Positions 1 to 64,000 of a stretch of DNA of 64,000 nt are shown piece after piece. How positions within the stretch are numbered: the stretch's first letter is position 1; each line of letters begins with the position of its first letter. The stretch spans positions 7,635-71,634 of the forward strand of contig JBNLED010000095.1 in NCBI GenBank assembly GCA_050304755.1, read 5' to 3'. The notes under the pieces were generated by a model. That model was not told the origin of the DNA. It saw only the letters and a list, made by a program, of their open reading frames with translations, and searched no databases. This DNA is from Polyangia bacterium (lineage in GTDB: Bacteria > Myxococcota_A > Polyangia > JAAYKL01). A program made the translations under genes and the position numbers.

Positions 1-376
1 CCGGGAGGCCATCGAGACGATGGTGGCCACCGCCCAGAGCGGCAAGGACCGGACCGAGGAGGGGGTCAACACCATCTCCAACGCCGGCGCCGTGATGAAC
101 GACCTCAGCGAGGCCATCCGGGAGAACTCGGAGTTCGCCAATGTCATCGCCACCAACATCAAGCAGCAGACCGTCGGGCTCACCCAGATCGCCGCGGCCA
201 TCGAGGAGATCAACACGACGGCCCTCGAGAACCAGAGCATCAGCCGGAATATCGTGGACGGCACGAAACAGATGAACCACTCCCTGAGCCAGCTCTCCGA
301 CATGGTGGGGCGGTGGAAGACCCCTGAAACCACCAACAATGATATCACTCAACAGACCGCGGAGAAGGCCGGATGA
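1..376 (+). CDS. Methyl-accepting chemotaxis protein, C-terminal signalling-domain fragment (5' end outside window)
   Basis: Open frame from position 1. The sequence IATNIKQQTVGLTQIAAAIEEINTTALENQS is typical of the distal MCP signalling domain. TGA stop at 374-376 overlaps the next gene's ATG. Confidence 0.6.
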   Translation, partial: REAIETMVATAQSGKDRTEEGVNTISNAGAVMNDLSEAIRENSEFANVIATNIKQQTVGLTQIAAAIEEINTTALENQSISRNIVDGTKQMNHSLSQLSDMVGRWKTPETTNNDITQQTAEKAG

Positions 377-10000: not shown

Positions 10001-11251
10001 TTACTGGTTCATCGACTCCAAGAACTCTCGATTCGTCTTGGTCCGACGTAGCTTATCCAACAAGAACTCCATGGAGTCAATAACATTTAGGGGATGCAGG
10101 AGCTGCCGCAGCAGCCATACCCGCTGCAGCACGAAGTCCTCGAGCAGCAGCTCTTCTTTTCGCGTCGCGGAGCGGTTGATATCAAGGCACGGGAAGATGC
10201 GCTTCTCCATCAGCTTGCGATCCAGGTGGATCTCGCTGTTGCCCGTCCCCTTGAACTCCTCAAAGATCACCTCGTCCATCCGGGAGCCCGTGTCCACCAG
10301 GGCCGTGGCGATAATGGTGAGGCTGCCGCCGCCCTCGATGTTGCGGGCCGCGCCGAAGAACCGTTTCGGCTTGTGCAGCGCGTTTGAGTCGACACCACCG
10401 GAGAGGATCTTCCCCGACGGCGGGACGACGGTGTTGTAGGCCCGGGCGAGCCGGGTGATGGAGTCCAGGAGGATGACGACATCGTAGTTGTGCTCCACCA
10501 GGCGCTTGGCCTTCTCGATGACCATCTCCGCGACCTGTACGTGGCGCTGCGCGGGCTCGTCGAAGGTGGAGCTGATCACCTCGCCCTGAACGTTCCGCGC
10601 CATATCGGTGACCTCCTCCGGACGCTCGTCGATGAGCAGCACGTGGAGCTTCACGTCCGGATGGTTGGTCGATATCGAGTTGGCGACATCCTGCAACAGC
10701 ACGGTCTTACCGGCGCGCGGCGGAGAGACGATGATGCACCGCTGGCCCTTGCCGATGGGCGTGAGCAGATCGATGATCCGCGTGGAATCGTTCTGGTTCT
10801 CCGTGGTCTCCAGGTTGAAACGATCGTCCGGGTAGAGCGGGGTCAGATTGTCGAACAATATCTTCAGACGAGCGGCTTCAGGGGACTCGTGGTTGATGGA
10901 CTCCACTTTGAGCAGCGCGAAATATCGCTCCGACTCCTTCGGGGGTCTGATCTGTCCCGCGACGGTGTCTCCGGTGCGGAGGTTGAAACGGCGAATCTGT
11001 GAGGGAGATACATAGATATCATCGGGGCCGGGGAGGTAGTTATAGTCCGGCGCCCGCAGGAAACCGAAACCATCCGGCAGGATCTCGAGCACCCCCTCTC
11101 CGGAGATGACCCCGTTCTGCGCGGCCTGTGCCTGGAGAAGGGCGAAGATGAGCTCCTGTTTGCGCATCCCCGAAGCACCTTCGATGTTGTACTCGCGGGC
11201 CATCGCCGTGAGCTCGGAAATAGGTTTTCTTTTTAGATCTCTTAGATTCAT
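10001..11251 (-). CDS. rho: Transcription termination factor Rho
   Basis: N-terminal RNA-binding domain ([36 protein letters not shown]), Walker A (GKTVLLQD), C-terminal [32 protein letters not shown]. Start chosen at MNLRDLK with GAGGAAA RBS; the ORF extends to 11272. Confidence 0.95.
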
Positions 11252-11575
11252 GTAGTTTTCCTCACCACTCATTTTTTACCTTATTGCAACCTAAACTGGT
11301 TGTCTTTTTGATGGAAGATATTAGGGGTTTCTATACTATCGTCGCTTTGTTTACCGTCCCGTCATTTGAGCGCTTGAACGTCGCGATACCGGTTGGGCTC
11401 CGCGGATTGAACGGTTCGTTCAAGAATTAAGTATTGCCAAGCTCGAGTTTTGTCAAGGTTTTATATAAGAAAAAAAACAAAATAGTGGAGCAATATCGCT
11501 CTATTTGGAGCTTCCGGTGTACAACCCGCTCTTTTTATACAATAATTAAATTTTTGAAAAAGCGAGGGGTCGATA

Positions 11576-15200: not shown

Positions 15201-18200
15201 GAGCTTATCATACAGGCGCTCCAACCCCTTCAAGGCGGCGACATGGCTCTCCTCGATATCGAGCGCCTTGCGGTATTCGTCGACCGCGGCCTGCGCCTCG
15301 TCAAGGTTGTCCTCGTAAATCTCTCCGATGCGGATGTGGGTGGAGATAATCTCGTCGGGCTCTTCGAGCACCTCGATCTTGCGCCGGAGCACGGTGATGA
15401 GCTCCCGCCAGTTCTCCGACGCGCCGTAGATGCGCTCCAACGCATCGATGGCCTTCTCCAATCCGGGATCCAGCGCGACCGCCTGCTGGAACGCCGTCCG
15501 CGCCTCGGGGATATCCCCCAGGTACTCCTCGTAAACCTCTCCGAGCTCCACCAGCAGGTCTTTTCTCTTCTCGTCTTCCTTCTCGAAGTCGACGGCGCGC
15601 TTCAGCACCTCGACGTACTCGTCCCACTGCTTGTTGGCGCGATAGAGGTGGCCGGTCAGCTGAAGGGCGGTGGCGTTCTCGCTGTCGAGCTGCAACACCC
15701 GCTGATAGCACGCGAGGGCATACTCCGGATTGTCCAGCTTGTCCGCGTACCATTTTCCGATCTTGAGGCAGAGGCTGATCTGGACATCCCGCTTCTCCAC
15801 GGCCGCGAGCACCTGGTTCGCCGCCTGGAGCAGCTCCTCCCACCGCCCGGTAACGGACGCCAGGCGCTCCAGATAGGCGGCGGTATCGTCGTTGACATAG
15901 TCCTCCTGGAAGGCCCGCAGCATGACGACGAACGCGTTGTCCGGCTGCTCCAGCTTCTCTTCGAAGATGTCGGCGACCTTTCTATAGATATCGATCCGTT
16001 GCTCGATATCCTCTATCATTCCCAACCGTCCATAGTAGTACTGATTCAGCTCGTCCCAGTTCTCCTCCTCGGTCTCTATCTCCACGAGCTTCTGGAACGC
16101 GAGGTCGTGGAGCTGATCGACCTCCAGGATACCGATGTACGCCTGCTTGGCCCGCAGCGGCTCGCCGATCTGCTCCTCGAAAACGCTCGCCTGATAGAGG
16201 AGGGTTTCGATGCGTTTCTCCCCTTCCAGGATCTGGGCTTTCTCGCGGAGCAGATCCACCTGATCCTCCCACATCTCCTGGTCCGTGTAGAGCTTCTCCA
16301 GGGCCTCATAGATCTTGAGATCCGAGGGATCGACGTCATAGGCATTCCGCCAGGAGTCGATGGCTTCCAGCGGCTGGTCGAGGATATCGGAGAAGATGGC
16401 GCCCTGTTTGGCGTAGTAGCCCTTGAGCTCTTCTTCTTCGAAGACGCTGGTGCCCACGGTGATGATGGTATCCAAGGTGTTCAGCAGCTGATCCCAGTCC
16501 TTGTTGGCCTCGTGAATCTGGGCGATCGCCTTCAGCGCGGGCATGTTCTCCGGCTCGATGCTGAGCACGTTCTCCCAGTTCTCCAGCGCGTTCTTGTCGC
16601 GCTGCAGGCACTCTCCCCAAACCAGGCCGAGCTGGCTGTAGATCCGCACGCGGGTCTCGTCGTCCTCGGCGACCGTCACCGCCCGATCCAGGATCTCCAC
16701 CAGATCGCTCCAGTTCTCCTGCCGGGCGTGGAGCTCCGCCAGGGATTCGAGCGCGAAGGTGTCCTCCCCCCGAAGCTCCAACACCTTGTTCCAAAGCTCG
16801 GTGGACTGGGGGATGTCGTTCAGGCAGTCCGCCGAGATGGTGGCCAACTTCGAGTAGAGATCCGCGAGCTCCTGCTCGTCATCGGTGCCGTCCTTCATAT
16901 GAGAGTAAATCTCGTAGAGCTCTGACCATGCCTCCTGATCCGCGTAGACGATTTCGAGATGCTCGAGCGCCTCCGAATTGTGAGGATCATATTCATCGAT
17001 GACCCTGTGGAAACACTCCCTGGCCTTCTCGGCATCCCCAATCTCCGTGCTGTAAACGGCCCCCAGCCGGTTGGTGTAGGCGATCTTCTCCTCCACATCC
17101 GGAACAATCTCCGCCAGCTTGAACAGGATACCGGCCAGCCGCTCCCACTCCATGTACTGCGTATAAATCCTGTCGAGCGCCGTGAGCACGTCCAGATCAT
17201 CGCCGCCGTGATCCAGACAGCCGCGATACGCCTGCTCGGCCCGCGCGATATCGCTGAGATGCTCCTCCGCGACAACCGCCAGACGCTTCGCGCAGAGTAT
17301 CTTTATCCCGGGGTCCTCATTCCTGAGGAACAGATCCTGATAGAGATCCGCGAGCTCCACCCACCCGTCGACCGCGCTCGCCAGGCGCTCCACCTCTTCG
17401 CCGGAGCGCTCGTTGAGGGGATCCGCAGAAAAGGCCTTGCAATACCAGTTGAACGCCTCCACCGCGTCCAGCGCGCGCTCCTCCTGGATCTCCGCCATCC
17501 GGTGCATGAGGGACACCATATCGTGGGTGTCCTCGATGTCCTCGAGTTGCGCCTCGTAGAGCCTGACGAGCTTCTCCCATTCTGAGTGCATCCGATAGAT
17601 GGGCTCGAGCACACCAGCAATATCTGTCCGGCGCCCCCCCTCCGCGAAGAGAAACTCCAGCGCGGAAGAGGACGACTCGTGCGCCGGATCCGCGGCGAGG
17701 ATGTCCCGATAGGTCTCGATGGCCTTGTCGATCTGTTGGAGCTCCTGCTGGTAGACCTGCCCCATCCGGAACTGCAGCTCCAGCCCCTCCTCGGGATCCT
17801 CCGCGATGGCGGCCTCCTTCTCGAGGATCTCCGTCAAATCGCCCCAGCGCTCCTGTATATGGAAGAGCCGATCCAGGCACTGCAGGGCCTCGCGGTTCTG
17901 GTCGTCGAACTCCAGCACCTTGCGATAGCGCAGGATCGCCTCGTCCGAGTCGTTCAGCTTCTCTTCATAGATCACACCGGCCTTCAGCCCGATGAGGATC
18001 GCCTGTTCGGCGTCCACGATTTGCTCCAGCTCCTTGTCCATCAGCATCGCCAGATCCTTCCAGCGATCCGTCTGGGAGGCCAGCTCCTCGAGCTTCTCGA
18101 GGGTCCGCTCGTTCGTGCGATCCTCGGCTAGGGCGCGGGCGTAGACGTCGAAGGCTTCTTCGGGGACATCCAGATACAGATCGCTCTCCATCATCTCGGC

Positions 18201-21200
18201 GATCCGGTGGAGGAGCTCCACCTTATCGATCTCGGACTCGGCGTGCCTCAGCTTGACATCGAGGACCTCGATCAGCTTACGCCACTCCCCCATGTCATGG
18301 TAGATGGGCTCGAGCACCTCGGCGGCGAGCATCGCGCCCTCGTCTGTATGGATGAGCTCCTCCAGAATCGCCAGGGAGGGCTCGTGATCCGGCGAGAGCG
18401 TCAGAATCTCCCTGAAATAGTCCACTGCGCGGGAGATGTCGTCGAGGTGTCTTACGTAGAGCTCCCCGACCCTGTACTGGAAGGAGATGGCCTCGTCGGG
18501 ATCTCCCGAGAGCTCTATCCGCCGCTCGAGGATGGAGAGGAGATCGTGCCACTCCTCCTTTTGTGTATAGAGGCAGTCGAGGCGATGCACCGACTGTACA
18601 TCATCCGGATCGAACTCCAACACCCGCTGGTAGGTGGTAATCGCCTTGTCGATGTCCCCCACCTCCTGCTCGTACACCGAGCCGAGGACATAGAGGACCT
18701 CCCGTTTTTCCTCGGAGGTTTCGACGAGATCGACCTTCTTGTTGTAGATTTCTTGCAGATCGTCCCAACGCTCCAGCTTGAGATACAGCGCTTCGATCTG
18801 CGTGATCGCCTGGAGATCGTCCTCGTCTATCTCGAGGATCCGGCGGTAGACCTCTATCGCCTTGTCGATATTCCCCATGTACTCTTCATAGATGCGACTC
18901 GCCTTGAAGAGCATATCCTTCTGTTCTTCAATATCCGCAACTATATCCACCTTCTTCTGATAAATGATCGCGAGATCTTCATAGTTCTCGGTTATCTGGT
19001 AGGCCCCCTCGAGCGCGGTCGCCGCCTCCAGATGCATGGGATCGACCTCGAGCACGGCGCGATAGTGCTTGATTGCGTTGTCCATGTCCTGCAGGTTGTC
19101 CTCGAATACGCGGGCGATCTTGAGATGGTAGTACGCCTTCAAATCGTAGGTGTCGATGGTGTCGACGATCCGAGCGTACAGCGCCGCCAGATCATCATAG
19201 AGGACCAGGATCCGGGCCAGTCGTTCCAGCTCTTCCTGGGTGCTGTCCTCCGCCGGATCAATCGAGAGGGCGCGGCCGAAGGTCGTGAAGGCCCTCTCCG
19301 GATCGTCCCCCTCGGTCTCCCACAGGGCGGCCACCTGATGGAGCAGCTCCACCTTTCGGCCGGCGGAATCCTCGGTGTCCACCATAATCTCGTAGACGTT
19401 GACGAGCTTCTCCCATATCCCCAGCGCTTCATAGATCGGCTGGAGGATATCGGCGACATCGCGACGGAACTCTAGATTCTCGATGATCCCCTCGAGGGCC
19501 TCGATGGCCTTCTCGTTGGAGGCGTCCACGTTGAGCACCTCTCGATAGATCTCTATCGCCGCGCCGATCTGCCCCAGCTGTTTCTCGTTCAGCTCGGCGA
19601 GGCGGAGGTTCAGGGCGATGGTCTCTTCGGCGTCCTCCCCCATGCTGAGCTGGGCCTGCAGGTTGTCGGCGAGATCGGTCCAGCGCTCGAGCTGTCGGAA
19701 GAGCTTGTCCAGCTCCTTCAAGGCCCCCATGTTGGCCGGATCGAACCCCAGGACCTCCTTCAGGCAGGTAATGGCGTCCTCCGGTCGGTCGAGCATCTCC
19801 TCGAAGATCATCGACATCTGGAGATAAATCTGCTCCTTTGCCTCAATATCATCGGTGATCTCCACTTTCGTCTTGTAAATTTCAATCAGTTCATCCCAGC
19901 GCTCGGTGCGATTGTAAATCCCCTCCAGGGCCGCGACCGACTCGCTGTTCTGGGGATCCGCCGCCATCGCCTGGTTGTAGGCGTAGACCGCCTTGTCCAC
20001 ATCGTCCAGCTGTGTCTCGTATATCCGGGCGGCGCGAATCCATAGATCCTTCGCCGTCTGAAGATCGCGGGTCCCCTGCCCTCCTTCCGCCAGCAGATCC
20101 ACCAGCTCGCTCCAGGAATCGAGGATATTCGTAATCTCCTCGAGGCGCTCGAGGGCCTCCGGCTCCGTCGGTCGCTGCTTGAAGGCTCGGGAGTACGCTA
20201 CGAACGCTCTTTCCGGAGACATCAGATTCTCCGAATACAGCGCCCCCTCCCGAATCAGGAGCTCATATCGCTCTAACTCGTCCGTCGCGTGGCGGACCAG
20301 GATCTCCAGAGAACCGACGAGCTTCTCCCACTCCTCGTGTTCCTCGTAGTACAGGGAGAGGACCTTGGCGGCTTCCGCCTGTTGCCCCTCGTCGTCGAGC
20401 ATCGCCTCGAGGGCGCTGACCGCATCGGCGTACTCCGGATCGACCTCCAGGATCTCACGATAGCACTCCATCGCCTTCACGCGGTCATTCAGATGTTGCT
20501 CGGAGACCTGCCCCTGGCGGAACTTGAGCTCGAGCTCGAGCTCCGGTTCGACCATCCCCAGATCCAGCTGTCGCCGGATGACGTCCGACAGATCCGTCCA
20601 CCGCTCCTCGACCAGGTACAGCCGGTCCAGGGAGGACAGCGAGCGGGGGTCATCGCCCGCCATCTCGATGAGCTGATTCAAGACGGTGATGGCCTTCTCG
20701 TTGTCCTTGACCTCTTCTTCCCAGAGCAGCGCCTGATTGTACAGGATCTCCTGCCGCTCGGTGTCATCCTCGGCCATCTCCAACCGACGGGCGTAGATGT
20801 CGAGCAACTCCTCATACCGCCCCATATGGGCGTAGAGCTTCTCGAGCGCAGCCACGGCGCGTTGATTCTTCGGATCCAGGGTCAGGATCTCATCGTAGTA
20901 CTTCAGCGCGTCGTCCCGCTGATTCAGCTCGTCATCGAGAATCCGCGCGATCTTCAGCTTGAGATTGATGCTCGCCGCGTCATCGGCGTCCTCCAGGAGC
21001 GAGCGATAGGTTTCAACGACGGTCTCCCACTCCCCGGTCTTGCCCGCGAGTCGTTCCATGTCCTCACTCGACTGCTCGTCCTCGGGGCTGAGTTCGAACA
21101 CCGAGAGGAACCCCTTGAACGCCCGCCCGGCGTCCCCGATCTCCTCCTCTGCGAGGGTCGCGATGCGCCGGGTCAGCTCTATTTTATCTACGATATCTTC

Positions 21201-22619
21201 GAGGTGATGAAGGCGGACCTCCAGGACATCAGCGAGCTTGGCCGGCTCTTTGCCTTCCTCCAATATGGGGATGTAGAGCTCCGCCGCGTCCAGGTTCTCG
21301 GGATCCAGGGACAGGATGGTCTCGTAGGATGACGCCGCGCGATCGGTGCGGGACTTCTTCTCGCTCCAGAGCTCCGCCACCTTGAAGTACATACTAATTT
21401 TGGTGGCGACCTCCGTGGTGTCCCGATCCGCCTCCCGCTCCAGAATCCGGATGAACTCATCCCACTTTCCGCTAGTGTCGTAGAACGCCTCAAGGTCGTC
21501 CCACGCCTGGGCCGCGAGATAACGCTTCTTGAGCTGCTCCTGCGCCCGTCTGTCGTTCGGGTTCATCTCGAGCAGGGTCTTCCACGCCTCTATCGCCTTG
21601 GCGTTGTCCCCGATGCGGTCACCATAGACCTGCCCCAGCTTCTGGAGCATCTGTGTCTGTTGCGCCGGGTCGACAACGCTCTCCAGCTGCCTGGACAGCA
21701 CCACCGCCAGCTTCTCCCACTCCTTGGCGCGCTCATAGAGGCTGCTCAGCTCGTTCAGGGCACTTTCGTTCTCGGGATCCACATTGAGGACCGCCTCCCA
21801 GCGCTCAATGCAGATATTGGGCCGCTTGAGACGATCGGACGCCAACTGGGCGATCTGCAGATACCCATCAATCCTGGCGGATTCATCATCGAGCTGCTCG
21901 ATCTCTTTCTCCATCACGCCGATGAGCTTCTCCCAATCCCTCCGCTTCTCATACATCCCCTTGAGGAACTCGAGCGCCTCTGAATGATAAGGATCGACCG
22001 CCAACACCTCCTCAAAGGCCTTGATGGTCTCGGCCTGATTCGAGAAACGGTTGAGGAAGAGCTTGGCCACCACCAACCAGACCCCGACCTTCTCCTCAGG
22101 ATCCGTAACCGCCGCCCCCTTGAGCTTCATCATCTTGACGAGATCCGGCCACCGCTCCATCGATTCGTATTTGTCGATTGCGGCGTTGATCGCGGGCAGG
22201 TAGTCCGATTTGAATTTGAGGATGGCCTGATAGGTATTGACCACCATCACATCCTGTTTCATGCGCTCATCATAAAGCGACGCCAGGGTCATCAGCACGT
22301 TGATCTTGCGGGGGCTGTCCTTGAGAGTATTGCCGTTCTTCTTCAGGAAATCCGCGAGCTGCGGCCATTTTCCCGTGTTCTCGAAAAGGCGCATCAGGGC
22401 GTCGACCACCTCCTGATGCCCGGGCGAGACCGACCATGCTTCCTGCCACGCGGCGATCCCCGCGTCGTCCCCCTCCATCTCAGCCGCGGTGGCGTTGTCG
22501 AACGCCTCTTTCATCTCAGGGGTCAACTCTTCCTCTTCCTGGGAAGATGCTGCGGCCAGTTCCTCTTCCTCCGCTATTACTTCTCGTCCATCCTCGCGCG
22601 ATTCGCCGTCAATCGTCAT
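12207..22619 (-). CDS. Giant tetratricopeptide-repeat protein (~3,470 aa; the ORF extends to 22733 = 3,508 aa), TPR array throughout plus a ~330-aa C-terminal non-TPR domain
   Basis: Single uninterrupted ORF of 10.5 kb. Recurrent 34-aa TPR signatures (W-LG-Y-A-F-A-P patterns, e.g. AIEAWKTLLEMNPNDRRAQEQLKKRY, ALKYYDEILTLDPKNQRAVAALEKLY) across >90 repeats. Start preferred at ATG 22619 (GAGGAGA RBS 6 nt upstream) over 22652 or 22733. Confidence 0.85.
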   Translation of the reverse strand: MTIDGESREDGREVIAEEEELAAASSQEEEELTPEMKEAFDNATAAEMEGDDAGIAAWQEAWSVSPGHQEVVDALMRLFENTGKWPQLADFLKKNGNTLKDSPRKINVLMTLASLYDERMKQDVMVVNTYQAILKFKSDYLPAINAAIDKYESMERWPDLVKMMKLKGAAVTDPEEKVGVWLVVAKLFLNRFSNQAETIKAFEEVLAVDPYHSEALEFLKGMYEKRRDWEKLIGVMEKEIEQLDDESARIDGYLQIAQLASDRLKRPNICIERWEAVLNVDPENESALNELSSLYERAKEWEKLAVVLSRQLESVVDPAQQTQMLQKLGQVYGDRIGDNAKAIEAWKTLLEMNPNDRRAQEQLKKRYLAAQAWDDLEAFYDTSGKWDEFIRILEREADRDTTEVATKISMYFKVAELWSEKKSRTDRAASSYETILSLDPENLDAAELYIPILEEGKEPAKLADVLEVRLHHLEDIVDKIELTRRIATLAEEEIGDAGRAFKGFLSVFELSPEDEQSSEDMERLAGKTGEWETVVETYRSLLEDADDAASINLKLKIARILDDELNQRDDALKYYDEILTLDPKNQRAVAALEKLYAHMGRYEELLDIYARRLEMAEDDTERQEILYNQALLWEEEVKDNEKAITVLNQLIEMAGDDPRSLSSLDRLYLVEERWTDLSDVIRRQLDLGMVEPELELELKFRQGQVSEQHLNDRVKAMECYREILEVDPEYADAVSALEAMLDDEGQQAEAAKVLSLYYEEHEEWEKLVGSLEILVRHATDELERYELLIREGALYSENLMSPERAFVAYSRAFKQRPTEPEALERLEEITNILDSWSELVDLLAEGGQGTRDLQTAKDLWIRAARIYETQLDDVDKAVYAYNQAMAADPQNSESVAALEGIYNRTERWDELIEIYKTKVEITDDIEAKEQIYLQMSMIFEEMLDRPEDAITCLKEVLGFDPANMGALKELDKLFRQLERWTDLADNLQAQLSMGEDAEETIALNLRLAELNEKQLGQIGAAIEIYREVLNVDASNEKAIEALEGIIENLEFRRDVADILQPIYEALGIWEKLVNVYEIMVDTEDSAGRKVELLHQVAALWETEGDDPERAFTTFGRALSIDPAEDSTQEELERLARILVLYDDLAALYARIVDTIDTYDLKAYYHLKIARVFEDNLQDMDNAIKHYRAVLEVDPMHLEAATALEGAYQITENYEDLAIIYQKKVDIVADIEEQKDMLFKASRIYEEYMGNIDKAIEVYRRILEIDEDDLQAITQIEALYLKLERWDDLQEIYNKKVDLVETSEEKREVLYVLGSVYEQEVGDIDKAITTYQRVLEFDPDDVQSVHRLDCLYTQKEEWHDLLSILERRIELSGDPDEAISFQYRVGELYVRHLDDISRAVDYFREILTLSPDHEPSLAILEELIHTDEGAMLAAEVLEPIYHDMGEWRKLIEVLDVKLRHAESEIDKVELLHRIAEMMESDLYLDVPEEAFDVYARALAEDRTNERTLEKLEELASQTDRWKDLAMLMDKELEQIVDAEQAILIGLKAGVIYEEKLNDSDEAILRYRKVLEFDDQNREALQCLDRLFHIQERWGDLTEILEKEAAIAEDPEEGLELQFRMGQVYQQELQQIDKAIETYRDILAADPAHESSSSALEFLFAEGGRRTDIAGVLEPIYRMHSEWEKLVRLYEAQLEDIEDTHDMVSLMHRMAEIQEERALDAVEAFNWYCKAFSADPLNERSGEEVERLASAVDGWVELADLYQDLFLRNEDPGIKILCAKRLAVVAEEHLSDIARAEQAYRGCLDHGGDDLDVLTALDRIYTQYMEWERLAGILFKLAEIVPDVEEKIAYTNRLGAVYSTEIGDAEKARECFHRVIDEYDPHNSEALEHLEIVYADQEAWSELYEIYSHMKDGTDDEQELADLYSKLATISADCLNDIPQSTELWNKVLELRGEDTFALESLAELHARQENWSDLVEILDRAVTVAEDDETRVRIYSQLGLVWGECLQRDKNALENWENVLSIEPENMPALKAIAQIHEANKDWDQLLNTLDTIITVGTSVFEEEELKGYYAKQGAIFSDILDQPLEAIDSWRNAYDVDPSDLKIYEALEKLYTDQEMWEDQVDLLREKAQILEGEKRIETLLYQASVFEEQIGEPLRAKQAYIGILEVDQLHDLAFQKLVEIETEEENWDELNQYYYGRLGMIEDIEQRIDIYRKVADIFEEKLEQPDNAFVVMLRAFQEDYVNDDTAAYLERLASVTGRWEELLQAANQVLAAVEKRDVQISLCLKIGKWYADKLDNPEYALACYQRVLQLDSENATALQLTGHLYRANKQWDEYVEVLKRAVDFEKEDEKRKDLLVELGEVYEEYLGDIPEARTAFQQAVALDPGLEKAIDALERIYGASENWRELITVLRRKIEVLEEPDEIISTHIRIGEIYEDNLDEAQAAVDEYRKALDIEESHVAALKGLERLYDKLERWQDLMDVLEIQLEYASSERERIDLLSRIAEMLEKEFLKPDRAAGRYEEILEIDPAQIESLDALERIYKQTGRWQDLIATLERHIEVVPDRMDRIGFYEQMGDVWASELKDADKAIEMYMEILDIDPDHIDALDNLAQLQAQNEDWGAAHDTLERLAQTVDDPDRKIDLYYRLGKINEENLMNREIAVEHFRSALDVEPGHLQSLEALRKIYLDEGDWVAGARALESEQEYTDNSRKRSKLQYELGALYSGKLGEEKLAVEWYEKALASDPDNQAAADPLVDVYIAEERYAEAEPLLDMLVRLGGRRSSSETQILQRKLGLVADKVGNLDKALKAYQAAYESDTSHLPTLLKLADVYFRKETWDKAFKFYQMVLVHHRDKQRKPEIVEIFYRLGHIKAQVKERRKALNMFDKALEIDPGHVPTLEEVIELHDAGKNFEQVIHFKKELLNAVDEEERFETLVEIGDIWQGKLRNTQKAISAYVEALDIDPDNRPVLHKVLPLYQSTKQWQKVVDIIRRVAEMEEDGEKLGRLYYSMGVIYRDEIKNAEEAVACFNLSLDASITELKAFEAIDRILTQRKDWKNLERAYRKMLHRITGTGRPDLEINLWHFLGEIYRTRMQQFEPAAEAFKMASNLDPDNVVRHEILAELYVSLPGRMDDAVKEYQWMIKNNPYKVESYKALRKLYFDNRQYDKAWCLCATLAFLKKADADEQQFFEQYRAKGMIRAQSRLDNEKWFKYVFHPNESIFVGKILEAVTNVVRSYKVQPTKAFGLKKGQKRPVNDTMMFSKTFFYAAQVLNLPVPPDLYVQEDSAGGLNFAITEPMASVCGASLLSGYSPQDLLFMVTKHLNYYRPEHYIRWVLPTHGELKTLLLAALKIGKPDFNLPADRTGVLDQYVKQLQGRMQPMEREALGSVVKRFLKAGENIDVKKWINAVELTGCRAGFLMCNDLEIAARMVQSESATVDEMPPKEKIKELVVFSVSEEYFKLRETLGITIST

Positions 22620-22996
22620 CTCATTCTCCTCGAAGAGTTTCCCCGCCAACATGTCTGTCTGATTTGTTGTGGAGAAGCTGATAATACAAATTGGTATGCC
22701 TGCTTGGCGTGCCAAAGGACAGTTTTGGCTCACCAGTCATCCTGCATTCCCTCGATGGTGCGCCTCCCTGGAAACCGGGGAGATCTCTGGTAATGGATTC
22801 AATCTGCCGACCGTGCTCCCGCTCGCTATACAAATACATCGAAAAAAACGGGCTCAATTCTTTCCAGTATGTAGCTCCTGGATCTCTCATTATCCGGCCT
22901 GTGTTTTCCAAATACTTGAAACCGCTTGAATAAATCGCCTTCCCTACTTGCCTCGGGGTCTACCGAAGCGACGAAGCGATTTCATACCTGATACTA

Positions 22997-57997: not shown

Positions 57998-58065
57998 GGT
58001 TTTTTTTAGAGGGGGGTGAACTATACTAATTGTGGTTCCCCCATTCCGACACCAAGAGAGGACAA

Positions 58066-61000
58066 ATGGCGCGCACATCCCGCTACGACATAGTCCCGGA
58101 CAAGCTCCTCGCCGCCAGGGAGGCGCTCTCCCGGATCCGCAACGGACAGACGATCTTCCTCGGCTCCGGGGTCGGCGAGCCCACCCTGCTCACAGACGCC
58201 CTCGCGGAGATGGCCGACGAGTTCAGGGATCTGGAGGTGATCCACCTCGCCGCCAATCTCCGGGAGTCCAAGCTGGCGCACCCCGACCTCGCCAGGAGCT
58301 TCCGCTTCAACACGTACTTCCTCGGCCAGGGCCTGTCGGACTTTTCGGAGGAGGGGGTGGTGGACTACACCCCGATGGATATCCTGGAGATGCCGTCAGC
58401 CCTCGCGAACGGCATCATCCACATAGACGTGGCCCTGGTGCATGTGTCACCGCCGGACTCCTTCGGGCTCTGCAGCCTCGGGGTCTCCGTGGACGCCACC
58501 CGGGCCGCGGTGATGCACGCCGACGTGGTCATCGCGCAGGTGAACGAGGAGATGCCGGTCACCCTGGGGGACTCCATGGTGCCGGTAGAGGACATCGATG
58601 TCTTCGTCCGGGGGGACCAGCCGCTGATGGAGATCCCATCGGCGGAGATCGATCCGGTGTCGCTCACGATAGGACGCCACATCGCCCGGCTCATCGAGGA
58701 CGGAATGACCCTCCACTTCGATCGGGGGCCCATCGGCTCTGCCACCATGCGCTACCTCGACACCCGTCGGGATCTCGGCATCCACACCGATGTGATGACC
58801 GATGAGATCCTAAGGCTCGTCAAGACCAAGGCGGTCTCCAACCGGGTGAAGAAGATCAACAAGGGGAAGTCCGTCGCCACCATGGTGGTGGGGAGCCGGG
58901 ATCTCTACAAGGCGGTGCACCGCAACCCCTACATCGAGATCCACCCCATTGACTATACCAACGACCCGTTCGTCATCGCTCAGCACGACAATATGGTGGC
59001 CGTCCATGCGGTGCAGGAGATGGAGCTCACCGGGATGGCCCGGGTGGATCAGGAGCGCCTCACGCCCTCCCATCTGCCGAGCAGCATGAGCTTCATCGAG
59101 GGCGCCCGCCGCTCCGAGAACGGCTTCACTATCCTCGCCCTCCCCTCCACCACGCCGAACGGGGAGCAGTCCCGCATCGTCCCCATCAGCAGCGGGAGGG
59201 GCTACTTCTACGCCCGGTCCAAAGTCGACTACGTGGTCACGGAGTACGGCGTGGTCCACCTGTTCGGCCTCAGCATCCGGGAGCGGGCCATCGCCCTCAT
59301 CCACATCGCGCACCCCAAGTTCCGCCCGCAGCTCCTCGAGGAGGCAAAGAAGCTCAAGTACGTGGGCCCGGAGCACGAGGTCATCCCGGAGTCCGGCGGG
59401 GTCTACCCGGACCGGTACGAGTTCACCCACACGTTCAAGGACAACACCGAGGTCTTCTTCCGCCCGGTCCGGCCGAGCGACGCCCGCCGCCTCCAGCGCC
59501 TCTTCTACTCCCTCTCCCCCAAGGACCGCCGGCTCCGGTACCACGGCACCATCAAGGCCCTCACCAATGAGGCGGCCCAGCGGATGGCCAACGTGGATTA
59601 CAGCCAGGACATGGCCCTCCTCGGGCTCGTGGGACCGAAGCGGAACCGGCGGGCCATCGCAGAGGGGCGCTACCTCTACAACCCGGCCAATAATATGGGC
59701 GAATTCGATATTGTGGTCCACGAGGCGTACCAGGGACGGGGCATCGCCACCTTCCTCGCCAACTACCTGAACAAGGCCGCCTACACCCGGGGGCTCGCCG
59801 GCGTCTATGCCTACATCATCACCCAGAACGAGGCCACCGTCGCCCTCCTCGCCAAGGCGTGGCCCACCGCGTGGAAGCACTGGGAGGACGGGGCCTGCAA
59901 CTTCGTCCTCAAGTTCCCGAAGGAGGATATCAGCCGCCCCAAGGACGCGATCATCCTCGATACGGTGAGCTCCGCCGAGTACTCTTATGGAGAGGATCAC
60001 CCCTTCGACCCCTCCCGGGCCAAGTTCGCCCTCCAGCTGATTCAGGATCAGGAGTGTTTGAACGAACCCTGGATGCGGGTGGAGAGCCCGGAGATCGTCC
60101 CGAAGCACCGCCTCTTCGAGTCCCACGACCCCGACTTCATCGAGGCCCTCGAGAAGGCGGGCACCGGCACATGGCGAAAAGAGTTCATCCGCTACGGTAT
60201 CGGCACCGAGGAGTGCCCCGTCTTTCCCGGGCTCTTCAACTACGTGCTGCTCTACTGCTCCGCCACCATCGCCGGCGTCAATCTCATCATCGAGGATCGG
60301 GCCAACGTGGTCTTCAACCCCCTCGGGGGGTTCCACCACTCCGGCCGGGATCACGCCGAGGGGTTCTGCTACGCCAATGACATCATCCTGGCCACGGACC
60401 TGTTCCTGGCGCGGGGCCATCGGGTGGCCTACATCGACATCGACGCCCACCACGGCAACGGCGTGCAGGACGCCTACTACCAGGACGACCGGGTGCTCAC
60501 CATCTCCCTCCACGAGAGCGGCCGCACCCTCTACCCCTGGGGCGGGTTCGAGGATGAAATCGGCGAGGGCATCGGCACCGGCTACACCATCAACGTACCA
60601 CTCCCCGAGGACACCGACGATGACGCCTACACCCAGGTGTTCGACCGGGTAGTGGTGCCGGCGGTGGAGCGGTTCAGCCCCACGGTGGTGGTGGTGGTGG
60701 TGGGCGCGGACACCCACAAGACGGATCCCCTCACCCACCTGAGTCTGAGCAACAACGGGATGGTGGCGGTGATGAAGAAGATCCGCGACTTCAGCCATCA
60801 TATGCTGCTCCTGGGGGGCGGCGGATACGATATGCAAGCCACCACCAGGGCCTGGTGCCGCATCTGGGCCGCGGCCAACCGCATCGACTCCCTGCCCGAC
60901 TACCTCCTGGTGTTGGGGGGAGCCTTCCTGGGGGACGGCGGGCTCCAGGGGGCCGACATCATCGACATGCCGTTCCTGATTACCGGAGAGAAGAAAGCGG

Positions 61001-61077
61001 CGATACTGGAGGAGCTGGACCGCATCGCGCGGTTCCATGAGGAGAAGACCATCCCGTTGATCCGGAAGAGCCGGTAG
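58066..61077 (+). CDS. Tri-domain fusion protein: acetyl-CoA hydrolase/transferase (family I CoA-transferase, 4-hydroxybutyrate-CoA-transferase-like), GNAT N-acetyltransferase, and histone-deacetylase-family (AcuC-like) deacetylase
   Basis: GAGAGG RBS before ATG 58066. aa 1-~440: IFLGSGVGEPT...YVVTEYGVVHLFGLSIRERAIALIHIAHPKFRPQLLEEAKKL (CoA-transferase N and C lobes). aa ~465-620: GNAT with motif A QGRGIATFL. aa ~640-1003: HDAC with GFCYANDIILA, DIDAHHGNGVQDAYY, LLLGGGGYD. Confidence 0.8.
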   Translation: MARTSRYDIVPDKLLAAREALSRIRNGQTIFLGSGVGEPTLLTDALAEMADEFRDLEVIHLAANLRESKLAHPDLARSFRFNTYFLGQGLSDFSEEGVVDYTPMDILEMPSALANGIIHIDVALVHVSPPDSFGLCSLGVSVDATRAAVMHADVVIAQVNEEMPVTLGDSMVPVEDIDVFVRGDQPLMEIPSAEIDPVSLTIGRHIARLIEDGMTLHFDRGPIGSATMRYLDTRRDLGIHTDVMTDEILRLVKTKAVSNRVKKINKGKSVATMVVGSRDLYKAVHRNPYIEIHPIDYTNDPFVIAQHDNMVAVHAVQEMELTGMARVDQERLTPSHLPSSMSFIEGARRSENGFTILALPSTTPNGEQSRIVPISSGRGYFYARSKVDYVVTEYGVVHLFGLSIRERAIALIHIAHPKFRPQLLEEAKKLKYVGPEHEVIPESGGVYPDRYEFTHTFKDNTEVFFRPVRPSDARRLQRLFYSLSPKDRRLRYHGTIKALTNEAAQRMANVDYSQDMALLGLVGPKRNRRAIAEGRYLYNPANNMGEFDIVVHEAYQGRGIATFLANYLNKAAYTRGLAGVYAYIITQNEATVALLAKAWPTAWKHWEDGACNFVLKFPKEDISRPKDAIILDTVSSAEYSYGEDHPFDPSRAKFALQLIQDQECLNEPWMRVESPEIVPKHRLFESHDPDFIEALEKAGTGTWRKEFIRYGIGTEECPVFPGLFNYVLLYCSATIAGVNLIIEDRANVVFNPLGGFHHSGRDHAEGFCYANDIILATDLFLARGHRVAYIDIDAHHGNGVQDAYYQDDRVLTISLHESGRTLYPWGGFEDEIGEGIGTGYTINVPLPEDTDDDAYTQVFDRVVVPAVERFSPTVVVVVVGADTHKTDPLTHLSLSNNGMVAVMKKIRDFSHHMLLLGGGGYDMQATTRAWCRIWAAANRIDSLPDYLLVLGGAFLGDGGLQGADIIDMPFLITGEKKAAILEELDRIARFHEEKTIPLIRKSR

Positions 61078-61251: not shown

Positions 61252-61614
61252 CTATATCTGTTTGGGTATCGGCGGCGGGTGGACCGAACGCTCCCGGGCG
61301 AACTCCACCAGGTCCTCCAGGGCCGCCCGGGACTCATCGCTCATCTCGGTGAAGGCTATTCCGTAGCCCCCCTCTACATGCTCCCGGACGATCTCCCCCT
61401 GAATGCGGACGTTCTCCAGATCCGCCAGCGAGAAGATGTCGAGCTCCACCCGCCGGCCCACGCAGAGATGCTCCCGTCCCTCGGGCTCGCCGGAGAGGAG
61501 AAGACCGCTCATGCTGATGTTGCGGACATATAGGACATAGTTTATGCTTTCGCTATCCACGCGAACCTGAGCCATGAGATTGTACCGCGGGTGGCTGCGC
61601 CGTTCCTCTGCCAT
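61252..61614 (-). CDS. PilZ-domain protein (120 aa)
   Basis: GGAGGTGAGG RBS. MAEERRSHPRYN (RxxxR) and RNISMSGLLL (NxSxxG). Only this C-terminal part of the long 61252-62205 ORF is considered real; the upstream part overlaps the MATE gene in another frame. Confidence 0.65.
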   Translation of the reverse strand: MAEERRSHPRYNLMAQVRVDSESINYVLYVRNISMSGLLLSGEPEGREHLCVGRRVELDIFSLADLENVRIQGEIVREHVEGGYGIAFTEMSDESRAALEDLVEFARERSVHPPPIPKQI

Positions 61615-61643
61615 CCTCACCTCCACAGAGAACCATAGCCATT

Positions 61644-63002
61644 TCAGGCCGCTTCCACAAGTCGTAGGCGCTTCCACCTTCCGCTCTCGAAGCGGTAGAA
61701 GATGAAGGCGGCCTGCACCAGCATCATGACGCACATGCCCATCCAGGTGCCGACAACCCCGAGCCCCATGGAGATGGTCAGGGTGTAGACCAGCGGGATG
61801 CCCAGTCCCCAGTGCACCGCGATGACCACCCATAGGGTCCACCGGGTGTCCCCCGCCCCCCTCAACGCGCCGTATCCCACCATATTGATCCCGTCGAACA
61901 CCTGGAAGAGGGCCGCCGCATAGAGCAAGGTCGCGGTGGTCTCCATCACCTCCTCGGCCGTCGTGAACATCCCCGCGATGAGGTGGGGGGCCACCACGAA
62001 CAGGACGCCGCAGACCAGGGAGTAGCCGAACATCAGGAACACCGATCGGCGCCCCATCGCCATGGCCAGCTCGGCGCGCCGCTCCCCCTGATGGCGCCCC
62101 ACCAAAGTGGTGGCCGCCACCCCGATGCCGAACGCGACCATGAAGCTGACGCTCGTGATCCGCATGGCGACCTGGTTGGCCGCGAGGGCCGTATCCCCCA
62201 CCCATCCGACCACCACGGCGAACACCAGGTAGGCGCCCACCTCCATGAAGAACTGGACCCCCATGGGCAGCCCGATGGCGATCATCTTCCGGAGCAGCCG
62301 CCGCTCCCCGATGAAGGGCGAGCGACCGGCGCCGACGGGGATGCGGTGGGTCCCCCCGGGCCGGTGGATCACCACGACGAAGCAGAGGAACATGAACAGG
62401 TTGCTGAGGGCGGTGGCGAGGCCGGCCCCGGAGACCCCCATCGCCGGGAGGGGCCCCGCCCCGAAGATGAGCCCGTAGTCCGCCGCGATGTTGACGGCGT
62501 TGGCCGCGAGGCTAATCACCATGGGCGTCCGGGTGTCGCCCTTCCCTTCCAGGTAGGCATTGTAGGTCCAGTACCAGAACACCGGGAACAGGCCGATGAT
62601 GCGGAACAGCAGGTAGTCATACCCGAACCGGCACACCGGCGCGCTCAGGCCCGCGGCGGCGAACAGGGGCTCCGAGAGGTAGAGGGCCAGCCAGGTCGCG
62701 GCAGCCAGTATCGTGGCCAGCGTCATCCCGTGGCCGAGCACCGCCCGGCACATCCGCGGTCGCCCGGCGCCGTGGTACTGAGCGACAAGGGTATTGACCA
62801 CCCCGATGAGCCCCAGGCTGAACACGTAGAGCGTAAACATGAACGTGGTCGCGATCCCCACCGCCGCCTGCTCGGAGGCGCCGAGCCGCCCCACCATGGC
62901 CGTGTCCACGATCCCCATCGCGGTAAACGACAGCTTGGAGATGACCACCGGCGTGGCCAACTTCACGATCTCCTTCCATCTGCGCTTCTCGAACATCATC
63001 AT
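61644..63002 (-). CDS. MATE-family multidrug/toxin efflux transporter (NorM-like)
   Basis: MMMFEKRRWKEIVKLATPVVISKLSFTAMGIVDTAMVGRLGASEQAAVGIAT... with 12 TM helices, typical MATE. GGAGG RBS 13 nt upstream of ATG 63002. The ORF extends to 63116. Confidence 0.85.
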   Translation of the reverse strand: MMMFEKRRWKEIVKLATPVVISKLSFTAMGIVDTAMVGRLGASEQAAVGIATTFMFTLYVFSLGLIGVVNTLVAQYHGAGRPRMCRAVLGHGMTLATILAAATWLALYLSEPLFAAAGLSAPVCRFGYDYLLFRIIGLFPVFWYWTYNAYLEGKGDTRTPMVISLAANAVNIAADYGLIFGAGPLPAMGVSGAGLATALSNLFMFLCFVVVIHRPGGTHRIPVGAGRSPFIGERRLLRKMIAIGLPMGVQFFMEVGAYLVFAVVVGWVGDTALAANQVAMRITSVSFMVAFGIGVAATTLVGRHQGERRAELAMAMGRRSVFLMFGYSLVCGVLFVVAPHLIAGMFTTAEEVMETTATLLYAAALFQVFDGINMVGYGALRGAGDTRWTLWVVIAVHWGLGIPLVYTLTISMGLGVVGTWMGMCVMMLVQAAFIFYRFESGRWKRLRLVEAA

Positions 63003-63040
63003 CACCCTAAGCAAGCCTCCAAATACAAGCCCGATAAACG

Positions 63041-63076
63041 AAAAAACCCCGCGACCTCGAGAGGTGGCGGGGTTTG
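63041..63076 (-). terminator. Rho-independent terminator-like hairpin with U6 tract, between a 23-codon leader ORF and the MATE start (attenuator)
   Basis: Minus strand: AACCCCGCCACCTC-TCGA-GGTCGCGGGG-TTTTTT (10-bp GC-rich stem with one mismatch, tetraloop, six Ts). Confidence 0.55.
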
Positions 63077-63105
63077 CGTCCAATCGCACCGAATGTGCTA
63101 CGCGC

Positions 63106-63177
63106 TCATCCGCCACCTCCCGGGCGCACCGCCGCCCAGTCCTTCCGGGTGTCGATAATCTGATGAGTCGTGACCAT
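63106..63177 (-). CDS. Putative leader peptide (23 aa, MVTTHQIIDTRKDWAAVRPGGGG) upstream of the MATE gene
   Basis: ATG at 63177 with strong AGGAGAT SD 7 nt upstream. Its last 4 codons (GGGAGGTGGCGG) are perfectly complementary to the 5' arm (CCGCCACCTC) of the downstream terminator hairpin. Confidence 0.4.
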   Translation of the reverse strand: MVTTHQIIDTRKDWAAVRPGGGG

Positions 63178-63243
63178 TCGTATATCTCCTAACGGTTTTC
63201 AGCCTAAGCAGAGTTACCTCGAGAATGCAAGCCTATTTTTTTA

Positions 63244-64000
63244 TTATTGCCGGCGACGTTTGATCAGGCGACCGCCGGTGTGCCCCCAGATCCACACGAG
63301 GGTGACGCCGGTGTAGGGCATCAGCAGCGGCAGCACCGGAAACATATACCGGGAGTGGCACACCGTGGGGAGGTGCACCGCGATGAGACACCCCACCGGG
63401 ACGAGCCAGAGGTACCGCGCCCATCGGTTCCGCCAGCCGAGGACGAGACCGAACAGCGAGAGGCCCCAGAGGCTCCGTGAGAGCCAGCGCATCTTCTCCC
63501 GCATGGCCTGGTCTTCCTGCAGAGGCCAGGGAGGGAAGATGGAGTTCCGAAAGAAGCTGAAGAGCCCGAGGAGCCTGGCGGGCATCGAGGTGAAGATCCT
63601 GTCGCCGTGCTCCGCCCGCCACGTCTCGAACCACTCCCGGTTCTTCTCGTTCAGCTCGATGAGCTGGTCCGGACCGTAGTGTCGCTTCCAGTGGAGGAAG
63701 TAGAGCTTGTTGACCCGCGGCAGTCGCTGGCCCGGATCGAGGAGGTGCTCCCGGTAGCGCTTCATGTCGAAGACCCGGCTCGCATAGAGCCCCACCGGCG
63801 TCGGCGAGAAGGAGAGGCCGAGGGAGGCGTTCCGGGCGGACCAGGCGAGCACCGGCGCCCCCAGGAGCGCGCTGAACACCGCCACCGTCATCCAGGCGGA
63901 AACAGCGCGCCACCGCCCCCACAGGGCGACCCCCGCGATATACCCGCCGGCGATGAGCGCCATGGGGGCCATGGCCGAACGGTTGAGGGTAAGCGACGCG
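63244..64000 (-). CDS. Polytopic membrane protein, C-terminal part (possibly ArnT/PMT-like GT39-family glycosyltransferase); 5' end beyond window
   Basis: Open to the window end. TM-rich sequence with a loop region ...RVFDMKRYREHLLDPGQRLPRVNKLYFLHWKRHYGPDQLIELNEKNREWFETWR. Family assignment tentative. Confidence 0.35.
   Translation of the reverse strand, partial: ASLTLNRSAMAPMALIAGGYIAGVALWGRWRAVSAWMTVAVFSALLGAPVLAWSARNASLGLSFSPTPVGLYASRVFDMKRYREHLLDPGQRLPRVNKLYFLHWKRHYGPDQLIELNEKNREWFETWRAEHGDRIFTSMPARLLGLFSFFRNSIFPPWPLQEDQAMREKMRWLSRSLWGLSLFGLVLGWRNRWARYLWLVPVGCLIAVHLPTVCHSRYMFPVLPLLMPYTGVTLVWIWGHTGGRLIKRRRQ

Follow-up and report, generated by a model that had tools for sequence, protein, structure and literature searches.

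The intergenic stretch upstream of a MATE efflux transporter gene in a Polyangia bacterium (contig JBNLED010000095.1, assembly GCA_050304755.1) raises the question of whether a ribosome that translates a short open reading frame (ORF) decides if the pump gene is transcribed. The stretch occupies positions 63243-63003 on the minus strand of the window, that is, of the whole 64,000-nucleotide (nt) piece of this contig that was analysed. An original prediction, made from the sequence alone, proposed a leader-peptide attenuator and, alternatively, that the hairpin simply ends transcription of the membrane-protein gene that precedes it. Based on the anatomy of the region, its conservation in related loci and predicted RNA folds, we propose that it is a ribosome-dependent (leader-peptide) transcription attenuator gating the MATE gene, and assign to this reading a probability of about 0.75.

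The Shine-Dalgarno (SD) sequence, the 23-codon leader ORF, the hairpin with its T6 tract, the GGAGG motif and the ATG of the MATE gene are all found as the original prediction placed them (Table 1). The region thus contains the components of an attenuator: a leader ORF with its SD, a terminator located between the leader ORF and the gene, and a predicted alternative, ribosome-dependent antiterminator pairing. The spacer between the leader stop codon and the terminator stem is 33 nt long. The segment GAGGTGGCGG at the end of the leader ORF (63119-63110) can pair without a mismatch, over 10 nt, with CCGCCACCTC (63070-63061) in the 5' arm of the terminator. A complement of at least 10 nt to the terminator arm arises by chance with P = 0.001 (upstream leader shuffled 20,000 times with dinucleotides preserved), so the claimed complementarity of the leader end and the terminator arm is unlikely to be a coincidence. 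The 12-mer quoted for the last four codons, GGGAGGTGGCGG, is one base off the last sense codons, which read GGA GGT GGC GGA and are followed by TGA. This antiterminator strand, termed region 2, doubles as a perfect SD-like sequence GGAGGTG. The two arms of the terminator are termed regions 3 and 4. The MATE SD lies about 20 nt past the U-tract, outside the helices of the switch, and the T-run 3' of the hairpin is as expected of a transcription terminator. Translation attenuation of the erm/cat type was considered and rejected, as the MATE SD is not sequestered in a leader hairpin.

The leader transcript is predicted to start at a promoter directly upstream of the leader ORF. The promoter-like site of the window shares its pair of boxes with locus L126 (TTGCAT...TTAGGCTGA). 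Sites of the form TTG[AC][AC]N-16..19-TANNN[ATC], ending 18-45 nt 5' of the leader start, occur in nine of 13 loci, compared with 1.2 expected from shuffles (at most 5 in 500). A scan of the minus strand with the E. coli promoter consensus found nothing, and a crude best-score promoter scan was not significant; the relaxed pattern TTGNNN/TANNNN gave a significant result. The T-run of the terminator is separated from the MATE ATG by 38 nt, and therefore there is no room for a separate promoter and untranslated region.

To assess conservation, MATE orthologues with 50-72% protein identity were retrieved from uncultured Myxococcota/'Deltaproteobacteria', and their upstream regions were read. Eighteen loci are assessable; L002 was excluded, since a contig end cuts the locus. 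The leader arrangement is present in 14 of the 18 (the window, L004, L036, L061, L125-L128, L130-L132 and L134-L136). Two of these, L036 and L061, were found by a motif scan, and the protein-retrieved loci alone give 12 of 16. The shared layout includes a promoter-like site, an SD with an ORF of 20-29 codons, a G-rich stretch before the stop codon, a hairpin after it, and an intrinsic terminator some 34 nt further on. Clear SD-like purine runs are located 4-10 nt 5' of the leader start in about nine of 13 loci. The start codon is ATG in every locus but one (TTG in L127), and Lys is frequent as the second codon. The ORF ends at the same aligned position in 12 of the 14 loci, the stop codon is TGA in 12 of 14, and 26-34 nt lie between it and the terminator arm. 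The N-terminal halves of the leader peptides are unconserved, even between the close relatives L004, L036 and L061. The small ORF and the hairpin are thus kept in relatives, a check that had been named for the attenuator claim.

Conservation also bears on a rival explanation, in which the hairpin is a plain terminator or insulator of the upstream membrane-protein gene and both the ORF and the complementarity are coincidental. In the window the hairpin does lie 170 nt 3' of the stop codon of that gene, on the same strand. However, the genes 5' of the leader are unrelated between loci and lie on the opposite strand in L130, L131, L135 and L136. The leader, the hairpin and their spacing travel with the MATE gene whatever is upstream, and therefore the hairpin belongs to the MATE gene. 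Given also the low chance probability of the complementarity (P = 0.001), we regard this explanation as very improbable, and the observed neighbourhoods contradict it.

The pairings that constitute the proposed switch were compared in an alignment (A1) of leader 3' parts from 13 loci, in which the antiterminator is formed by columns 14-23 with columns 64-73. The consensus structure given by RNAalifold is the terminator; 92.9% of its cells are paired, six pairs have compensatory changes, and none of 500 shuffles reaches its score. In the 10-pair antiterminator helix 84.5% of cells are paired, with approximately 95% in the core of 8 base pairs (bp), and only 42-69% after a shift of the partner by 1-3 columns. 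Two antiterminator pairs have compensatory changes (U-A to A-U and G-C to A-U), and one of 500 shuffles reaches the observed value. Co-variation is seen in L130 (GGAGGCGGG:CCCGCCTCC), L131 (GGTGGCGA:TCGCCACC) and L127/L136 (GGAGGCGG:CCGCTTCC). When both strands come from one locus, duplexes of regions 2 and 3 are more stable than when the strands are taken from different loci (p about 0.03). Terminator mismatches are observed at A1 columns 68/84 and 69/83 in five to six of 13 loci, and the same bases of the 5' arm pair with region 2 in 10-12 of 13. Therefore the arm is kept complementary to region 2 independently of its partner in the terminator.

Other elements of the leader are conserved in position more than in sequence. 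The post-stop hairpin starts 2-4 nt 3' of the stop codon in nearly all loci with differing sequences, such as GTGC-GTAA-GCAC, GCGT..ACGC, GGCGC-TTGA-GCGCC and CAGTA..TGCTG. In the predicted antiterminator state it is at the apex of the helix of regions 2 and 3 (2:3), and by analogy with SL-2 of vmlR (PMC9226507) it is a candidate RNA polymerase pause hairpin. At the position of the small hairpin within the leader ORF of the window, L004, L036 and L061 fold a hairpin of another sequence (GTCGGC-NTCGT-GCCGNC). Region 1, a putative anti-antiterminator, is consistently positioned across loci near codons 3-8 (+5 to +25 of the ORF) and could pair with region 2, for instance as CTCATC:GATGAG in the window, ATCCACC:GGTGGAT in L125 and CATCTGCC:GGCAGATG in L132.

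Folding with a ribosome placed on the RNA suggests how the choice between the two conformations could be made. In ribosome-free nascent RNA ending at region 3, the antiterminator forms in nine of 13 loci, and in the remaining four region 1 sequesters region 2. When the first 27 nt are masked, as by a ribosome on the first codons, the antiterminator forms in 12 of 13. With positions from stop-15 to stop+12 masked, as by a ribosome at the stop codon, the terminator forms in all 13. These folds, another check named beforehand, support the claim that the two foldings are mutually exclusive, and together with the conservation in 14 of 18 loci they favour leader-peptide attenuation. The terminator is the more stable state at equilibrium; the difference amounts to 5.6 kcal/mol in the window (constrained folds) and to 11-30 kcal/mol elsewhere. 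Unconstrained folds of the window flip between the states with the chosen ends, and the two states are nearly iso-energetic there. As the terminator is favoured at equilibrium, the switch would have to be kinetic, i.e. co-transcriptional.

The masking folds also bear on the Gly codons at the leader end. Three to four consecutive Gly codons are found in 13 of the 14 leaders, which could indicate a glycine-starvation attenuator of the amino-acid-operon type, sensing the charging of Gly-tRNA. However, these codons are the antiterminator strand, and a stall there would mask region 2 and lead to termination, opposite to the his, trp and leu attenuators. The regulated gene encodes a MATE transporter rather than a glycine pathway enzyme, and the L132 leader contains no Gly codons. 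A sensor of glycine supply is hence hard to credit.

For the preferred reading, leader-peptide attenuation, we infer that translation and transcription are coupled in the following way. Transcription would start at the predicted promoter just 5' of the leader, and a ribosome would translate the 23 codons as RNA polymerase advances, perhaps briefly held by the post-stop hairpin. If translation is unimpeded, the ribosome at the Gly codons and UGA would cover region 2, leaving region 3 to pair with region 4; the terminator would form and transcription would end about 40 nt short of the MATE start, with the pump OFF. A ribosome held up or stalled within the first two thirds of the leader would leave region 2 bare when region 3 emerges, and in most loci region 2 would likewise be bare with no ribosome at all. 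Ahead of the synthesis of region 4, the 10-bp antiterminator could then enclose the post-stop hairpin, allowing read-through and turning the pump ON. With a MATE exporter as the output, ribosome-targeting compounds would be the most plausible signal; most likely the leader would respond to ribosome-targeting antibiotics or to other general slowing of translation.

Several observations weigh against this reading. The leader is absent from four MATE orthologues (L001, L129, L133 and L003). The covariation of the antiterminator is modest, with only the two compensatory pairs. The sequences are related and G/C-rich, and cross-locus 2:3 duplexes are stable too, whereas in L128, L125 and L132 the own 2:3 duplexes are weak (-8.6 to -13.7 kcal/mol). 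The pairing of regions 1 and 2 is no better than in shuffles (mean z of -0.7 over 13 loci); it is strong in L132, L125, L126 and L128, and only in L132 is it clearly significant and co-varying (z = -4). As a consequence of such differences in folding, the predicted state without translation varies between loci. Finally, most loci also have an open -1 frame, and an open frame of 20-25 codons in GC-rich DNA is by itself no evidence of coding.

The last point, together with the fact that conservation is strongest at the RNA level (GGAGGYGGYGGNTGAGYG, the hairpins and the spacing), would be compatible with a ribosome-independent switch, namely a riboswitch or the target of an antiterminator protein, in which the ORF is incidental. 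However, a search of Rfam 15 with positions 62900-63400 returned no family even at E <= 10, apart from three spurious matches (E 0.85-1.3) to the terminator hairpin or its flank, and at the gathering score the whole window yielded tRNA only. Upstream of region 2 there is no conserved sequence or fold that could form a ligand pocket. A start codon with an SD-like run, often with Lys as the second codon, is present in every locus despite the unconserved ORF sequence, and the in-frame stop codon falls at one aligned position in 12 of 14. Such a switch therefore appears improbable.

The construction of the leader 3' end deserves separate consideration. The peptide often ends with W/F-x-x-V-P-x-G-G-G-G before UGA. 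Gly precedes the stop codon (position -1) in 11 of the 14 leaders, GGG occurs within the last four to five residues in 13, and 'VP' (GTGCCN) in nine. Not every leader has the Pro and the aromatic residue, the exceptions being L136, L134 and L130. In L132 the reading frame of the 3' end differs (the peptide ends with RARRQMRT), and the RNA sequence GGAGGCAG with its pairings is kept. Third positions of the Gly codons vary, co-varying with the terminator arm. The Gly run seems to be mainly an RNA-level requirement, because it is complementary to the C-rich arm and co-varies with it at third positions, and because L132 retains the RNA sequence in another frame. The UGA, the Gly at -1 and 'VP' may be peptide-level features. 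Gly at -1 is described as the slowest residue for peptide release in a passage of PMC10802582 that cites Pierson 2016. A slow stop would usefully prolong the masking of region 2 for the approximately 1-2 s (an estimate) that polymerase would need to complete the terminator.

Another feature of the 3' end is a mini-ORF overlapping the leader stop codon. It consists of NTG, two codons and a stop in 13 of 13 loci, and is one codon shorter in L136 due to an in-frame 3-nt deletion. Over the 14 loci its start is ATG in nine, TTG in two, and GTG, CTG and ATA in one each. The second stop codon (TAG, TAA or TGA) is kept in all 14, a statistic of limited weight, as the T is invariant and TRR is a stop in three of four cases. 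We rejected the mini-ORF (M-S-A-stop in the window) as the main sensor, as in vmlR or lmo0919, since it starts with CTG or ATA in two loci. As an inducing sensor it was rejected because a ribosome there would mask the antiterminator strand, which predicts repression and not induction. A ribosome on the mini-ORF may instead reinforce the OFF state, reached by termination-reinitiation or by direct loading of 30S subunits.

These features could be read as an arrest-peptide sensor, in which the C-terminal end makes the ribosome dwell at the stop codon, either intrinsically or through a small molecule inside the exit tunnel (TnaC and SecM are examples). The dwell time, and not an upstream stall, would then set the choice between terminator and antiterminator, and GGAGGTG with the mini-ORF would help hold the ribosome. 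The prevalence of UGA, of Gly at -1 with its slow release (as given in the same passage of PMC10802582) and of GGG near the end is consistent with this idea, as are the variable third positions of the Gly codons, the recurrent 'VP', and the second stop in the mini-ORF frame that is retained even across the deletion in L136. On the other hand, L132 changes the peptide end and keeps the RNA, the Gly third positions follow the terminator arm, the Pro and the aromatic residue are not found in all loci, and no conservation is seen in the N-terminal halves. That TGG never occurs at the second stop is not significant (about 0.9 expected in 14, an estimate). A ligand-induced stall at the stop codon would shut the pump off, which is odd for an exporter. 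TnaC acts through downstream Rho-dependent termination and depends on RF2 and UGA, whereas the MATE leader has an intrinsic terminator, not of the Rho type. An arrest peptide is thus an unlikely explanation.

Similarly, we find it rather doubtful that the 3' end is a 'ribosome parking' device, composed of an SD-like GGAGGYGG encoding Gly-Gly-Gly(-Gly), a UGA overlapped by NUG, and a mini-ORF of two to three codons. In such a device, slow release by RF2 after Gly, anti-SD anchoring and termination-reinitiation would keep the ribosome on the antiterminator strand, so that the attenuator would report termination and recycling capacity, or a tunnel-bound small molecule (as TnaC does), and not stalling in elongation. 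If this is true, the sensing principle would be new among efflux-pump attenuators.

Two frame-related features of the window were also considered. From a GTG at 63116, within the Gly codons, the +1 frame runs without a stop across the terminator and joins the MATE gene in frame (61644-63116, minus strand, 490 aa). The other loci lack such a leader-MATE fusion, which is therefore probably accidental; gene callers could be misled by it. We also rejected a -1 slippery heptamer (C CCG GGA), for lack of conservation.

Table 1. Features of the MATE leader and its surroundings in the window, and the leader peptides of the other loci (each followed by a stop codon).
Feature	Positions	Strand	Details
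Promoter-like site, predicted	63201-63230	minus	-35 TTGCAT (63230-63225), 18-nt spacer, -10 TAGGCT (63206-63201)
Leader SD	63190-63186	minus	AGGAG, 8 nt 5' of ATG; direct reading
Leader ORF	63177-63106	minus	MVTTHQIIDTRKDWAAVRPGGGG; ATG 63177, 23 codons and TGA 63108-63106
Region 1, candidate	63153-63167	minus	CTCATC and weak wobble pairs; pairs with GATGAG, the 3' part of region 2
Small hairpin within the ORF	63120-63139	minus	CTGGGCG-GCGGTG-CGCCCGG; directly 5' of region 2
Region 2, antiterminator strand	63106-63119	minus	GAGGTGGCGG (63119-63110, Gly codons), into TGA; pairs with 63070-63061
Mini-ORF	63098-63109	minus	ATG AGC GCG TAG; overlaps leader stop (ATGA); region 2 as SD 6 nt 5'
Post-stop hairpin	63076-63105	minus	GCGC..GCAC-ATTCG-GTGC..G.CGC; candidate RNA polymerase pause hairpin
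Intrinsic terminator, including A-tract	63041-63075	minus	Stem and T6 (63046-63041)
Region 3, terminator 5' arm	63072-63061	minus	CCCCGCCACCTC; G+C-rich stem with one C-C mismatch
Region 4, terminator 3' arm	63058-63047	minus	GAGGTCGCGGGG
MATE SD	63020-63016	minus	GGAGG; direct reading
MATE efflux transporter gene	61644-63002	minus	452 aa; ATG 63002; Pfam MatE PF01554, E 4.2e-58; proposed regulated gene
PilZ-domain ORF	61252-61662	minus	Pfam E 5e-15
1015-aa ORF	58030-61077	plus	
Giant 3508-aa ORF	12207-22733	minus	
Rho gene	10001-11272	minus	
Leader peptide, L128			MKTIHQIIANKDGAFVPTRGGG
Leader peptide, L125			MKNIHRNLISRTAWIGVPFRGGG
Leader peptide, L127			MRRPTHLNRIAQKDYWTFVPIGGGG; TTG start
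Leader peptide, L126			MKTCRITTFKTHDAWVPVPLGGGG
Leader peptide, L130			MIDFTTCSIFIVLGIDLPNAEGGG
Leader peptide, L131			MTADVPIETVVSGAQTPTGGGE
Leader peptide, L134			MISSADRTVIKTTGGVNPLNGGGG
Leader peptide, L135			MLMITTICMNLFGVDAPVGGGG
Leader peptide, L004			MKSAQFIIMPVGIVPTGGGG
Leader peptide, L036			MKFVPTTNPIPVGVVPAGGGG
Leader peptide, L061			MKFATLPILNPVGVVPTGGGG
Leader peptide, L136			MTKRTYNTPAPCFWTIIVLTGGGV
Leader peptide, L132			MKHLPTAMNRTATDITGKVPFRARRQMRT

The distribution of the leader was further analysed with a covariance model (R1) built from 13 sequences. Its 13 members score 64-86 bits and L136, which was retrieved independently, scores 53.5 bits; no second copy was found in the window and none in the leaderless loci. 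A scan of metagenome DNA with GGAGGTGGCGGATGAGYGC gave L036, L061 and L104 (the last being the same as L004) as the real relatives among the matches listed. In a common bacterium of the human gut, the 19-mer GGAGGTGGCGGATGAGTGC is also part of a conserved coding gene that is unrelated to the leader. This gene accounts for 68 near-identical matches of the approximately 120 listed (L005-L124), and the others, apart from the real relatives, are scattered chance matches. The motif scan of viral contigs gave 0 matches. A literature search found no description of the leader family and nothing relevant on Gly-codon leaders. With neither an Rfam match nor a published description, the family appears to be undescribed.

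The orthologues that lack the leader show a different organization. L003 has nearly no intergenic space 5' of the MATE gene. The other three share another element, CGGTTGACAGG-N3-CGAAAGAGGGCTA (L001:2925-2955, L129:1940-1975 and L133:1920-1960), which corresponds to a -35 box TTGACA with a conserved spacer and is promoter-like, possibly also an operator. The comparison of this element with the leader indicates that one MATE orthogroup is regulated in two ways.

The 452-aa MATE protein is identical to database protein P0001. The PilZ-domain ORF overlaps the end of the MATE gene by about 18 nt and may be co-transcribed with it; genes downstream of MATE differ in other loci. The 1015-aa ORF converges on the MATE/PilZ pair and looks like a fusion of acyl-CoA synthetase-like, acetyltransferase-like and histone-deacetylase-like parts. 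The giant ORF and the Rho gene are located in the same window. The Rho protein shares 88-95% identity with proteins of metagenome-assembled genomes labelled Myxococcota/'Deltaproteobacteria', which places the host among uncultured bacteria of this type.

The leader family sits directly 5' of MATE genes in uncultured Myxococcota-like soil and sediment bacteria. Its presence suggests that the MATE orthogroup may export something tied to translation stress, for example ribosome-targeting natural products. The module is compact (about 190 nt) and makes testable predictions, and its combination of a Gly run, UGA and an overlapping mini-ORF could reveal how the time a ribosome spends at a stop codon is adjusted. 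Ribosome-stalling attenuators are a main bacterial route to induction of resistance genes only under translation attack. To our knowledge, the characterised cases come almost entirely from Firmicutes or Pseudomonas and control ABC-F, Erm, ABC or RND-linked genes. Attenuation of this kind is a familiar mechanism; direct gating of a MATE gene in Myxococcota-like bacteria and the construction of the leader 3' end are unusual.

In attenuators of the trp type, four RNA segments form mutually exclusive 2:3 and 3:4 pairings, a ribosome at the leader stop codon masks region 2, and the terminator is the more stable structure, so that the decision is kinetic. The proposed MATE attenuator resembles them in its mutually exclusive pairings, in the masking of region 2 at the leader stop and in the kinetic choice. 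It differs in that region 1 contains no tandem regulatory codons, the 1:2 pairing is weak or variable, and the regulated gene is not biosynthetic.

The vmlR leader of Bacillus subtilis is alike in its topology, with an anti-antiterminator (for which region 1 is a candidate in the MATE leader), the pause hairpin SL-2 at the apex of the antiterminator and an intrinsic terminator, and in having a very short (3-codon) upstream ORF with its own SD (PMC9226507). In vmlR this 3-codon ORF is the sensor and lies within the anti-antiterminator (PMC9226507), whereas the mini-ORF of the MATE leader lies on the antiterminator strand, where a ribosome would favour termination, and a separate leader of 20-29 codons is located 5' of it.

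The bmrB-bmrCD system of Bacillus subtilis is controlled by ribosome-mediated transcriptional attenuation, is induced by protein-synthesis inhibitors and requires translation of its leader (PMC4191407). It also has a leader ORF, alternative stem-loops and an intrinsic terminator directly 5' of a multidrug transporter, and differs in the type of transporter (ABC), the longer leader, the terminator located inside the ORF, the Firmicute host and the lack of any sequence relationship (PMC4191407).

In Pseudomonas aeruginosa, the PA5471.1 leader/armZ attenuator controls MexXY (PMC13041342). That leader is transcribed from a constitutive promoter (PMC13041342), and the MATE leader from a site that is predicted to be promoter-like. 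The two share no sequence similarity, and neither a poly-Gly/UGA ending nor an overlapping mini-ORF is described for PA5471.1; the latter controls the anti-repressor ArmZ, whereas in the MATE leader the pump gene itself would be gated (PMC13041342). Both have a Gram-negative host, a short leader ORF and drug efflux as the output, and in both full translation would lead to the 3:4 terminator and a stall early in the leader to read-through, by a kinetic choice (PMC13041342).

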